From positions 1 to 24,060 of IMG/VR virus record IMGVR_UViG_3300033074_001684: a stretch of DNA of 24,060 nucleotides; one strand, 5' to 3'. Position 1 is the stretch's first letter. Every line of letters starts with the position of its first letter. The position numbers were made by a program, and so were the translations under genes. The DNA comes from a virus. The notes beneath the pieces were generated by a model. The model saw nothing but the letters and a program-made list of their open reading frames with translations, was not told the DNA's origin and searched no databases. Below are positions 18,482-18,903 of the stretch, in pieces.

Positions 18482-18505
18482 CGGCCCTGTTCATGGCCGT
18501 TTTTT
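18482..18505 (+). terminator. intrinsic terminator (plus strand)
   Basis: Hairpin CGGCC-ctgttcat-GGCCG followed by TTTTTT. Confidence 0.5.
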
Positions 18506-18595
18506 GGCAGAGGATGAGGGAATTGAACCCCCGTATGGCTCTTCACCATGACCACCGATTTCGAGTCGGGTACATTGCCGCTCTGTCAATCCTCT
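18505..18595 (-). tRNA. tRNA-Ser(CGA), class II
   Basis: Reverse complement AGAGGAT TG ACA..GG..TGT A CCCGA CTCGAAA TCGGT, a long variable arm, then GGGGG TTCAATT CCCTC ATCCTCT G CCA. Anticodon CGA, discriminator G, CCA encoded. Confidence 0.8.
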
Positions 18596-18807
18596 GCATA
18601 CCAACTTTCACCACACTTGCCACAGCAATAATTTGTTCCTTTGTCTGTCTCACGTGTGCGAATAGACTTTCCACTCTTTTTGCATTTCGGACACCGGGCT
18701 GTTTTCTCAGCCGTGTCGGGATACTTCTGTTCAAAAACCGTCATGCAGTCTCCCACTCGATGATAAACTTTACCATCGTCTTCGGCATAAGGACTAACAT
18801 CAAACAT
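18586..18807 (-). CDS. 73-aa zinc-ribbon protein (CPKC...CGKC)
   Basis: First ATG lies 4 nt downstream of the 3' CCA of tRNA-Ser(GGA). The TGA stop lies inside the 5' acceptor stem of tRNA-Ser(CGA). The Cys pairs are typical of a zinc ribbon. Confidence 0.45.
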   Translation of the reverse strand: MFDVSPYAEDDGKVYHRVGDCMTVFEQKYPDTAEKTARCPKCKKSGKSIRTRETDKGTNYCCGKCGESWYAED

Positions 18808-18811
18808 AATT

Positions 18812-18903
18812 TGGCGGAAGATGAGAGATTTGAACTCCCGCACGCCTTACAGCGTGACCTCCGACTTCCAATCGGGTGCAATACCGGACTCTGCCAATCT
18901 TCC
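18812..18903 (-). tRNA. tRNA-Ser(GGA), class II
   Basis: Reverse complement GGAAGAT TG GCA..GG..TGC A CCCGA TTGGAAG TCGGA, a long variable arm, then GGGAG TTCAAAT CTCTC ATCTTCC G CCA. Confidence 0.8.

Follow-up and report, generated by a model that had tools for sequence, protein, structure and literature searches.

A phage zinc-ribbon gene that ends within the 5' part of a tRNA-Ser gene, an overlap shared by several related lineages

The only stop codon of a conserved phage zinc-ribbon gene lies inside the tRNA-Ser(CGA) gene that follows it on the same strand, and ten nucleotides are used by both genes. This arrangement is found in a 24,060-nucleotide stretch of virus DNA (IMG/VR record IMGVR_UViG_3300033074_001684), referred to here as the window. 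Comparison with related sequences indicates that the overlap is old and conserved in several lineages, having come through synonymous saturation. The account that we favour, and regard as rather probable, is that a huge phage carries a densely packed same-strand array of tRNAs and ORFs that would be expressed from one precursor, and that the zinc-ribbon gene ends at a tRNA UGA as a tolerated by-product of packing and cassette turnover.

Both tRNA-Ser genes and the zinc-ribbon ORF between them are on the minus strand. The upstream tRNA-Ser(GGA) occupies 18812..18903, with its encoded CCA at 18814-18812, and the downstream tRNA-Ser(CGA), also with an encoded CCA, occupies 18505..18595, its 5' end being 18595. 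ARAGORN identified both, and they score 46.4 and 47.5 bits, respectively, against the Rfam tRNA model RF00005, which has a gathering score of 29. Both fold as class II cloverleaves in which the variable arm is long, the anticodon is one for Ser, and the acceptor stem pairs. Covariation supports this fold: among relatives, seven pairs in the variable and T arms of tRNA-Ser(CGA) carry compensatory double changes, and its acceptor stem is intact. The longest form of the ORF begins with the ATG at 18807-18805, 4 nt past the CCA of tRNA-Ser(GGA), from which it is separated by the A/T spacer AATT (18808..18811, minus strand). Its TGA at 18588-18586 coincides with nucleotides 8–10 (U8-G9-A10) of tRNA-Ser(CGA), and the CDS thus spans the entire 5' strand of the acceptor stem. 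In the dual-use segment (18586..18595, minus strand) the last base of GCA and the codons GAG, GAT, and TGA (Ala-Glu-Asp-stop) are nucleotides 1–10 of the tRNA. ARAGORN, Rfam, and direct reading of the sequence therefore agree with the original prediction of an ORF between two tRNA-Ser genes that starts just past a CCA and stops within the next tRNA. The placement of the stop within nucleotides 1–10 holds, while its description as lying inside the acceptor stem was slightly loose, since the TGA comes just after it and consists of U8, G9, and the first D-stem nucleotide.

The ORF behaves as a protein-coding gene. Over six lineages its dN/dS is 0.04–0.17 with dS about 1 or saturated, and Cys18, Cys21, Cys41, and Cys44 are invariant in an alignment of six homologues. 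In the AF2 model (pLDDT 70.8) the two CxxC knuckles (CPKC...CGKC) are carried on a three-stranded β-sheet (residues 28–33, 36–41, and 47–51), as in a C4 zinc ribbon. The JGI gene call on the record (P0001) is the 73-residue ORF. One could suppose that the conflict is an annotation artefact, the ORF being no gene or tRNA-Ser(CGA) a dead copy, since the ORF is short, no Pfam family matches it at E≤0.01, and a chimeric pseudo-tRNA is present elsewhere in the window. This is hardly credible given the purifying selection and invariant cysteines of the protein and, for the tRNA, the Rfam score, the intact acceptor stem, and the compensatory changes. On this comparative evidence, both tRNAs and the zinc-ribbon ORF are taken to be genuine and under selection, and the window contains a coding CDS that has its stop within the 5' portion of a tRNA gene on the same strand.

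The zinc ribbon could not be placed in a named family. The best NCBIfam matches reach 14–18 bits, below cut-offs of 21–109, and Foldseek with the model returned nothing at E≤0.001, the best E being about 0.2. By fold and by profile the protein comes closest, without reaching significance, to TFS/Rpb9, Elf1/ELOF1, and the archaeal RNase P protein Rpp21, C4 zinc ribbons that have in common with it the two CxxC knuckles and the three-stranded sheet; membership in the DUF1610, TFS, Elf1, or Rpp21 families was not found. We rejected the likeness to Rpp21 as a sign of a role in tRNA processing because, at E~0.2, it is that of a generic zinc ribbon. The DUF1610 label on one homologue (P0004) is an automatic name from the source. 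No nuclease motif is present in the protein. A tblastn search of 50,697 phage records with the zinc ribbon gave no match, and a metagenome scan for homologues added only L007, a weak partial match with no tRNA.

The start differs between the public call and the homologues. All seven homologues begin at the residue that is Met22 of the 73-residue form (ATG 18744), and we therefore take the conserved protein to be 52 residues long (18586..18744, minus strand; CPKC-x18-CGKC; homologues P0002-P0006 and L008), with the N-terminus MTVFEQK. In four of the six other lineages there is no in-frame start codon upstream of the conserved Met. A Shine-Dalgarno (SD)-like patch, GGGAGA (18749..18754, minus strand), ends 4 nt ahead of ATG 18744, and a purine-rich patch of this kind precedes the conserved Met in every homologue. 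In L008, where the gene directly follows tRNA-Ser(GGA), it starts at the conserved Met, 16 nt past the tRNA. These comparisons point to 18744 as the conserved start and leave the choice of 18807 as the used start a matter of interpretation; they also weaken the proposal that removal of the upstream tRNA would yield an essentially leaderless mRNA. At the other end, the conserved core of the protein finishes at Trp49, 5 nt ahead of tRNA-Ser(CGA), and reading on to the stop inside the tRNA would give the C-terminus ...GESWYAED.

The 21 codons between the two ATGs (18745..18807, minus strand) are in frame in this genome only and are absent from all homologues. They weakly resemble a separate small ORF of L001 (L001:9216-9356) and L012 (P0157), with 6 of 20 residues identical and a pairwise E of 3e-4, and are probably the remnant of such an ORF (46 residues in L001 and L012) that a deletion fused to the zinc-ribbon gene. 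ATG 18807 may still serve as a start because other ORFs of the clade begin 4–7 nt past a CCA. It is thus possible, although we rather doubt it, that the 73-residue form (N-terminus MFDVSPYAEDDGK) is the real product here, initiated at 18807 on a processed, near-leaderless mRNA and consisting of 21 residues of another small ORF joined to the zinc ribbon. In its favour, the 21 codons are open and run in phase with the zinc ribbon, JGI called the 73-residue form, and the CCA-aatt-ATG context is like the CCA-aatttt-ATG of called genes in L002 (53 residues) and L012 (46 residues, P0157). The similarity of the extension to the N-terminus of the 46-residue ORF is also in keeping with it. That similarity is weak, however; the extension occurs in none of the homologues, the SD-like GGGAGA stands ahead of ATG 18744, and, by a rough estimate, an open in-phase stretch of 21 codons with an ATG would arise by chance in ~10% of cases. 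A scan for promoter consensus sequences found no convincing promoter between tRNA-Ser(GGA) and the ORF. The Bacteroidetes-type −7 motif TAtgTTTG at ATG 18807 was rejected as a promoter since no −33 TTTG lies upstream.

The overlap was then compared among relatives. The same junction of ORF and tRNA-Ser(CGA) is found in L002, L003, L005, and L006. In the window, L002/L003, and L005/L006 it reads TGG-5 nt-AGAGGATTGA without indels, with dS of 0.4–1.3 among them, and the homologue P0005 likewise ends in ..VED. In L001 and L012 a different ORF, ending in ..VVKIED, stops at the same UGA of tRNA-Ser(CGA); it is coding, with 24 of 34 substitutions at codon position 3 and one in-frame indel of 3 nt. 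A hydrophobic 53-residue ORF of L004, whose ATG adjoins the previous stop, ends at this UGA as well. The TGA is unlikely to reflect an alternative code in which it is sense, and we rejected that reading: code 11 leaves the long genes uninterrupted, several gene ends are of the ATGA-overlap type, and homologues ending at this TGA are equal in length. Outside these relatives the searches were empty. Megablast of 17.5–20.5 kb against the 50,697 phage records gave no match; exact-pattern scans of IMG/VR and GTDB genomes for the 5' part of tRNA-Ser(CGA) found nothing, hence no hint of a host; and there are no nearby tRNAs at the distant relatives of the methyltransferase (L014-L021) or of the vault-like protein (L009 and L010, phages of 735 and 462 kb).

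If frames were random, the chance of three different ORFs sharing the frame that stops at nucleotides 8–10 would be about 1/27, a hint that this ending is selected and not just tolerated. The independent lineages are few (~8), and the independent junctions number about 3. We also considered use of the earliest-stop frame as an argument for selection; all three ORFs at tRNA-Ser(CGA) use it, but the effect is not significant (~6–7 of 10) once these are pooled with other junctions, the tRNA-Ser(GGA) of L001, and phage T5, and the argument was dropped. A selected regulatory coupling would mean that ribosome traffic on the ORF gates the folding of tRNA-Ser(CGA) and its processing by RNase P, or that processing limits the ORF to a pioneer round of expression. 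We consider this unlikely. One tRNA triplet does end three unrelated ORFs in different lineages, and the junction has kept free of indels and of a change of TAT to TAA or TAG over dS of about 1. On the other hand, the independent junctions amount to no more than about three, the gene has survived loss of the arrangement in L008, and the T5 overlaps are in various frames. Moreover, 4 of the 10 tRNA or tRNA-like genes of the window have a stop triplet at U8-R9-R10 whether or not an ORF ends there, and ending at this position may be the least harmful frame.

The zinc-ribbon gene is part of a wider packing of ORFs against tRNAs that exceeds chance. An ATG-initiated ORF of at least 45 residues begins within 4–18 nt after 6 of the 10 tRNA or tRNA-like genes of the window (background 0.089, P=7e-5), and such an ORF stops in the interval from −9 to +10 relative to the tRNA 5' end at 4 of the 10 (background 0.037, P=3e-4). 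Five of the six tRNA-adjacent starts are only 4–12 nt past the CCA and lack an SD sequence; CCA-aatttt-ATG spacers recur in L001, L002, and L012. The majority of the island's ORFs end at a stop of their own shortly ahead of the tRNA, and these non-overlapping stops lie about 5–9 nt upstream of the tRNA 5' ends. Because the spacers are so short, they leave no room for separate signals, and the alternating tRNAs and small ORFs, all on a single strand, lie too close together for individual promoters or terminators. The signals that we did predict lie at the border of the segment. A G+C hairpin followed by T6 adjoins the 3' end of tRNA-Ser(CGA) (18482..18499) and reads as a terminator on the plus (antisense) strand only. 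A strong σ70-like promoter (TTGACA-16-TATACT, TG-extended, 11/12; 18284..18311, minus strand), predicted by the consensus scan, precedes the next gene, which is vault-protein-like, and marks the likely end of the tRNA/ORF unit.

Two further ORFs run into tRNAs. A 77-residue ORF (18847..19080, minus strand), whose ATG overlaps the stop of the FkbM-methyltransferase gene (ATGA), has no stop before tRNA-Ser(GGA) and continues 57 nt into it, to a TAA at tRNA nucleotides 55–57; the tRNA-encoded tail would be GRLAESGIAPDWKSEVTL, and the last conserved codon, His58, adjoins tRNA nucleotide 1. A word-index homologue search with this ORF found nothing, and direct comparison revealed a homologue in L001 (L001:8940-9173; 44% identity, E 2e-16) that extends into the tRNA by the same 57 nt, and L012 shows this too. 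A putative 84-residue ORF (21718..21972, minus strand) starts 7 nt past tRNA-Leu(CAA) and has its TAG at nucleotides 8–10 of tRNA-Leu(TAA) (21727..21647); homologue searches with it gave no match. The borders of tRNAs show cassette turnover: L008 has HNH genes and a tRNA in inverted orientation, and L001 has an insertion. HNH genes adjoin orthologous tRNAs in L008 and, weakly, in L001, and none was detected among the window ORFs scanned. The pseudo-tRNA of the window, a Ser/Leu chimera, is a further sign of such turnover.

The overlap sets translation against tRNA maturation. Given how RNase P is known to act, a cut at 18596/18595 necessarily yields an upstream piece that ends ...UGG UAU GC and lacks a stop, as the original prediction held. 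Therefore the same RNA cannot both have its stop reached and its tRNA excised, and the two events exclude each other on one RNA at one time, the only stop being inside the tRNA. We infer co-transcription and the order of events from the layout of the genes. Most likely the tRNAs and small ORFs are transcribed as one precursor, on which translation of the zinc-ribbon gene, from ATG 18744 or possibly, in this genome only, from 18807, would terminate at U8-G9-A10 of tRNA-Ser(CGA). The full protein could then be finished only on nascent or unprocessed RNA, and the terminating ribosome would cover the 5' half of the tRNA and block its folding. Once the tRNA has folded, RNase P would cut 7 nt upstream of the stop and release it, leaving a stop-less and presumably short-lived mRNA fragment for the general pathways of ribosome rescue and RNA decay to deal with. 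On any one molecule, translation and maturation of the tRNA would thus follow one another or exclude each other. Such an overlap would be tolerable because the conserved part of the protein is complete at Trp49, before the cleavage site is reached, and the arrangement may be seen as a by-product of the extreme packing and cassette turnover of phage tRNA islands, as in T5.

The main idea of the original prediction amounts to a punctuation by tRNAs like that of mitochondria. In this reading, excision of tRNAs would be the normal way of making the mRNAs, which would be near-leaderless at the 5' end and stop-less at the 3' end, and a phage RF-1-domain factor (the ArfB-like homologue of the original prediction) would free the chains. 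This is quite unlikely. It is true that two consecutive conserved ORFs, the 77-residue ORF and the zinc ribbon, lack a stop of their own and have cores that end 0 and 5 nt before RNase P sites, that many ORFs start 4–7 nt past a CCA without an SD sequence, and that an RF-1-domain mini-protein (15117..15491, minus strand; probable start ATG 15470; Pfam PF00472) is syntenic in the window and L001. However, the conserved zinc-ribbon start, preceded by an SD-like patch, is 67 nt past the tRNA, own stops stand just before the tRNA in most ORFs of the island, and complete in-frame stops are present inside tRNAs, with three ORFs sharing the earliest-stop frame, which would be surprising if ribosomes never translated the codons inside the tRNAs.

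The link to ArfB rescue is also weak. The RF-1-domain protein has GGG aligned to the GGQ of RF1, and the GGG is kept in L001; in a survey of the family, GGQ is found in most of the members of about 125 residues, and the nearest subclade reads GG[G/S]GKDTS. NCBIfam detected only the GGQ/catalytic-domain region of RF1, RF2, and PrfH models, far below cut-offs, and matched no ArfB model. The C-terminus, judged by eye, is of mixed charge and not a basic tail. The protein accordingly lacks the catalytic GGQ, the curated model match, and the basic C-terminal tail that would place it with ArfB or ICT1. That the lineage runs a mitochondria-like, tRNA-punctuated expression inside a bacterium, with near-leaderless and stop-less mRNAs of small genes whose chains a GGG/GGS release-factor-domain protein frees without tmRNA tagging, is improbable.

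Several consequences follow from the overlap as it stands. Ten nucleotides can do double duty for a protein gene and a tRNA and be kept so over a long divergence, and how much of the phage protein is made would be tied to how the phage tRNA matures. Annotation programs that bar CDS/tRNA overlap or choose the longest ORF would mis-annotate such islands, as in the public call of 73 residues for a conserved protein of 52. If stop-less fragments are translated, huge phages would offer a natural bacterial system for non-stop rescue and for leaderless initiation after tRNA processing. The analysis also draws attention to a subclade of phage mini release factors, as yet unstudied, in which the GGQ glutamine is missing.

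Several known systems bear comparison. In animal mtDNA, mRNAs are flanked directly by tRNAs, whose excision sets the mRNA ends, and starts lie at or near the 5' end; stops before a tRNA are missing or incomplete, and ArfB-family factors (ICT1 and mtRF-R) handle non-stop complexes. The zinc-ribbon gene differs in that a complete in-frame stop lies within the tRNA, at nucleotides 8–10, whereas the mitochondrial type has no usable stop, the codon being completed after processing or the chain freed by a rescue factor. Most ORFs here keep their own stop, and against a mitochondrial spacing within about 3 nt of the excision end, ATG 18807 is 4 nt past the CCA and the conserved start, with its SD-like patch, 67 nt downstream. 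Polyadenylation-completed stops do not appear to be indicated here, and the RF-1-domain protein lacks the GGQ glutamine. With ArfB (YaeJ) and ICT1 that protein shares the small (~120-residue), stand-alone catalytic domain of a class-I release factor (Pfam RF-1; PHROG 3122); in ArfB/ICT1 a basic tail probes the empty mRNA channel, while the phage protein has a mixed-charge tail and GGG for GGQ.

Phage tRNA clusters are closer. The tRNA cluster of T4 carries a free-standing homing endonuclease gene, segB, with gain and loss of cassettes between relatives, and SegB cuts within the conserved T-arm sequence of tRNA genes (PMC2330249). The HNH genes beside the same tRNAs in relatives of the window phage recall this cluster, which differs in that the Ser-tRNA segment of the window has no endonuclease gene; the parts of that account considered here report no CDS/tRNA overlap for T4 (PMC2330249).

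The literature searched on phage tRNA punctuation or CDS/tRNA overlap held nothing directly relevant, and no experimental study of the CDS/tRNA overlaps of T5 was found there; neither did megablast and tblastn on the phage records find a sequence relationship between T5 and the window. The likeness to the T5 tRNA region (annotation of the curated GenBank record AY543070) is one of organization, a same-strand alternation of tRNAs with small ORFs and HNH endonuclease genes. T5 ORFs start 13–25 nt past the preceding tRNA, with room for an SD sequence and with promoters annotated in between, in contrast to the 4–12 nt without an SD seen here. At their 3' ends the T5 genes come closest to the present case. 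CDS stops lie inside tRNAs at nucleotides 4–6 of tRNA-Met (T5.057), 12–14 of tRNA-Ser(GGA) (hegC), 21–23 of a pseudo-tRNA-Gln (hegD), and 22–24 of tRNA-Asn (T5.069), and T5.065 adjoins tRNA-Lys with no spacer. Judged by this annotation, a CDS stop inside a tRNA is of a known kind, of which the zinc-ribbon gene and tRNA-Ser(CGA) are a neat instance rather than a new principle.

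The window carries nine tRNA genes, all on the minus strand (ARAGORN). Two of them, tRNA-Ser(GGA) at 18903..18812 and tRNA-Ser(CGA) at 18595..18505, are also recognized by Rfam (46.4 and 47.5 bits, respectively; gathering score 29). Read on this strand, tRNA-Ser(GGA) ends in G-CCA (18815-18812) and is followed by the spacer AATT (18811-18808) and an ATG (18807-18805), from which the frame stays open until the TGA at 18588-18586. This TGA is nucleotides 8-10 (U8-G9-A10) of tRNA-Ser(CGA), while nucleotides 1-7 are used by the final three sense codons of the ORF (GCA GAG GAT). The 73-aa ORF is an existing gene call for the contig (P0001). 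ARAGORN, Rfam and reading of the sequence all agree with the geometry described in the original prediction, including a stop within the first 10 nucleotides of the tRNA, although the stop falls just beyond, not within, the acceptor-stem strand. Ten nucleotides are common to two genes under selection, and the sole stop codon of the ORF is inside the tRNA.

Sequence comparisons indicate that the zinc-ribbon ORF encodes a protein and is under strong purifying selection. Among 5.8 billion proteins searched there were five relatives of 51-59 aa; a scan of IMG/VR gave a sixth lineage (contig L008), and contig L012 carries a seventh copy. The four cysteines of the CPKC...CGKC motif are invariant in a six-sequence alignment, and the 49-codon core gives dN/dS values of 0.04-0.17 at a dS near 1 or saturated (Nei-Gojobori). 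Compensatory double changes in seven pairs of tRNA-Ser(CGA), chiefly in the variable and T arms, likewise point to structural selection on the tRNA. The protein is a generic C4 zinc ribbon (AF2 model, pLDDT 70.8); family and fold searches gave no significant match, the best, non-significant resemblances being to Elf1, TFS/Rpb9 and archaeal Rpp21.

All homologues begin with MT(V/I/A/E)FE(Q/R)(K/R)YP, which corresponds to Met22 of the window ORF (ATG 18744), and in every one a purine-rich, Shine-Dalgarno (SD)-like patch (GGGAGA in the window) lies 4-10 nt before this codon. An upstream in-frame start codon is absent in four of the six other lineages. In L008, too, the zinc-ribbon gene comes straight after tRNA-Ser(GGA), but its start is the conserved Met, 16 nt past the tRNA. 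The ATG 4 nt after the CCA in the window is present as predicted and may be used, but it is not the conserved start of the gene. The 21 extra codons have no counterpart among the homologues. In the related contigs L001 and L012 a distinct 46-aa ORF, a called gene in L012, begins 6 nt past tRNA-Ser(GGA), with three or four genes between it and the zinc-ribbon gene; the extra codons show weak similarity to its N-terminus (6/20 residues identical, pairwise E 3e-4). Judging from these sequences, a deletion in the window most likely fused a remnant of the 46-aa ORF in frame to the zinc ribbon.

The junction, TGG followed by 5 nt and AGAGGATTGA, was found in the window, in L002/L003 and in L005/L006, and is implied for the protein record P0005 by its ..VED ending. 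Across these lineages neither an indel nor a new stop upstream has appeared, despite synonymous divergence of 0.4-1.3. The gene and tRNA-Ser(CGA) are apart in three lineages, through a ~260-nt insertion after the Trp49 codon (L001/L012), an extra gene (L004), or an HNH endonuclease gene and inversion of the tRNA (L008). Different ORFs newly placed upstream of the tRNA likewise stop at its UGA in L001/L012 and L004. In the ..VVKIED* ORF of L001/L012, 24 of 34 substitutions fall at codon position 3 and the one indel is an in-frame 3-nt change, a clear sequence signature of coding in exactly the frame that ends at the tRNA UGA; in L004, a hydrophobic 53-aa ORF whose ATG abuts the preceding stop ends at the same UGA. 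A selected regulatory coupling of the two genes seems to us unlikely.

These contigs also record other changes. In L008, HNH endonuclease genes lie right after tRNA-Ser(GCT) (1128-1850) and right after the zinc-ribbon gene (3208-3829), which has a different 17-aa tail past Tyr50, and tRNA-Ser(CGA) is inverted; the arrangement indicates that homing endonucleases have driven the remodelling of tRNA borders. In L012 (5138-5581) a 147-aa protein-tyrosine-phosphatase-like gene is intact, whereas in L001 (9353-9760) it is broken down to a 78-aa fragment; as both contigs come from the same sample, this represents strain-level pseudogenisation within the tRNA island. The 1,230-nt Logan contigs L005 and L006 carry an identical 30-nt tRNA 3' part at 1-30 and 1201-1230, two Ser tRNAs with identical 3' halves flanking the methyltransferase/zinc-ribbon pair and breaking the assembly. 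An ATG lies 7 nt past the first CCA.

Close packing of ORFs and tRNAs extends beyond this locus. The 77-aa ORF (19080..18847, minus strand) has an ATG overlapping the stop of an FkbM methyltransferase gene and no stop before tRNA-Ser(GGA); its final conserved codon abuts nucleotide 1 of the tRNA, into which it runs 57 nt, and its L001/L012 homologue (44% identity, E 2e-16) shows the same read-in. A putative 84-aa coding sequence (21972..21718) begins 7 nt past tRNA-Leu(CAA) and ends at the TAG formed by nucleotides 8-10 of tRNA-Leu(TAA). Other ORFs stop ~5-9 nt ahead of a tRNA, and ORF starts lie 4-18 nt behind a CCA; the Pfam-supported methyltransferase starts 12 nt after a CCA without an SD. 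This adjacency exceeds the window's own background for both starts (P=7e-5) and stops (P=3e-4). Of the 10 tRNA or tRNA-like genes here, 4 have a stop triplet at U8-R9-R10, so that a tRNA can supply a ready-made stop in one frame. A chimeric pseudo-tRNA (22680-22770, minus strand), called by neither ARAGORN nor Rfam, matches tRNA-Ser(CGA) almost exactly over its 5' three-quarters, CGA anticodon loop and long variable arm included. Its 3' acceptor strand, CCGGGGCTACCA, is of the Leu-tRNA type, so the acceptor stem cannot pair; its sequence suggests that it arose by recombination of one tRNA gene with another. An ORF begins 6 nt past its CCA, and a 54-aa ORF stops at its nucleotide 8-10 TGA. The two tRNA-Leu(CAA) genes, 23335-23411 and 21980-22067 (minus strand), differ in length (77 and 88 nt), the former being called Leu by ARAGORN though short for a class II tRNA.

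The window, a complete contig of 24,060 nt (G+C 45.9%), is syntenic with the 399,930-nt contig L001, the common order being FkbM methyltransferase, 77-aa ORF, tRNA-Ser(GGA), further small genes, zinc ribbon, tRNA-Ser(CGA), a vault-protein-like 839-aa gene and an RF-1-domain gene. T4-type baseplate genes at 720-8784 (minus strand; gp5-like OB/trimer domains, a gp6-like protein and a 1279-aa baseplate-wedge-domain protein) mark the element as a myovirus-type huge phage. The vault-like gene (15726-18245, minus strand), unusual in phages, encodes a major-vault-protein shoulder domain (PF11978, E 4e-20) and a vault repeat, and its product shares 37-38% identity, along 99% of its length, with proteins from uncultured huge phages of 462 and 735 kb. 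The 735-kb genome comes from the study describing the Mahaphage clade, with predicted Bacteroidetes hosts (Al-Shayeb et al. 2020, PMC7162821); the window's relationship to it is distant.

Between tRNA-Ser(GGA) and the ORF, no convincing minus-strand promoter was found. Past tRNA-Ser(CGA), in the 260-nt gap ahead of the vault-like gene, lies a strong, extended sigma70-type promoter close to the consensus (18284-18311, minus strand; TTGACA-16-TG-TATACT, 11/12), whereas many genes have a weak SD motif or none in front of them. Directly against the tRNA-Ser(CGA) 3' end, a 5-bp G+C hairpin followed by TTTTTT (18482-18499) resembles an intrinsic terminator on the plus (antisense) strand only. It could keep antisense transcripts from entering the tRNA array, or it could be a chance occurrence (4 found vs 1.6 expected).

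By the established biochemistry of RNase P, a cut between 18596 and 18595 would form the mature tRNA 5' end and leave an upstream fragment that ends ...UGG UAU GC and has no stop. The array would be transcribed as a single precursor, and a ribosome could reach the UGA only on RNA still holding the unexcised tRNA. While terminating there it would cover and unwind the acceptor 5' strand and the D arm, preventing the tRNA from folding; its departure would permit folding and then excision, leaving a stop-less and presumably short-lived mRNA. The conserved core stops at Trp49, 5 nt short of the cut, so a core-complete chain would result from both routes. We consider it probable that the overlap is tolerated dense packing, with translation first and processing afterwards.

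The original prediction had linked the non-stop message to an ArfB-like rescue factor. The protein concerned (15491..15117, minus strand) has a Pfam RF-1 domain and matches PHROG 3122, but by the following features falls outside the ArfB family: in the alignment to RF1, GGG takes the place of the universal GGQ (also in L001, 13924-14301); no NCBIfam model of ArfB is matched, the NCBIfam matches being to the catalytic region of RF1, RF2 and PrfH and below threshold; and its C-terminus, by eye, is not a basic tail. GGQ is retained in ~120 of 150 representatives of this roughly 125-aa family. The subclade nearest to the window's protein has GGGGKDTS (6) or GGSGKDTS (~17), and may represent a variant of release-factor-like proteins encoded by phages that is as yet unstudied. 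Substitutions of the GGQ glutamine lower release activity without always abolishing it, so the GGG protein may still be active in release. True punctuation with dedicated rescue appears unlikely, slightly more so than regulatory coupling. The prediction is confirmed as an observation and partly supported as an interpretation.

In phage T5, as in the window, CDS stops fall inside same-strand tRNAs: in the curated GenBank record, T5.057 stops at nucleotides 4-6 of tRNA-Met, hegC at 12-14 of tRNA-Ser(GGA), hegD at 21-23 of a pseudo-tRNA-Gln and T5.069 at 22-24 of tRNA-Asn, and T5.065 abuts tRNA-Lys. Such an overlap is therefore not new in kind. However, ORFs start 13-25 nt after a tRNA in T5 and 4-12 nt after the CCA here, where the overlap is also conserved across far-diverged synonymous sites, the same tRNA triplet is reused by three unrelated ORFs, and neither of two neighbouring conserved ORFs has its own stop. 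In function, the nearest analogy is mitochondrial tRNA punctuation, but the locus appears to lack the features that define it. The junction, known here from sequence, is a clean, conserved dual-use element with testable consequences, and is a variation on a known kind of phage tRNA-island organisation, with a precedent in T5.
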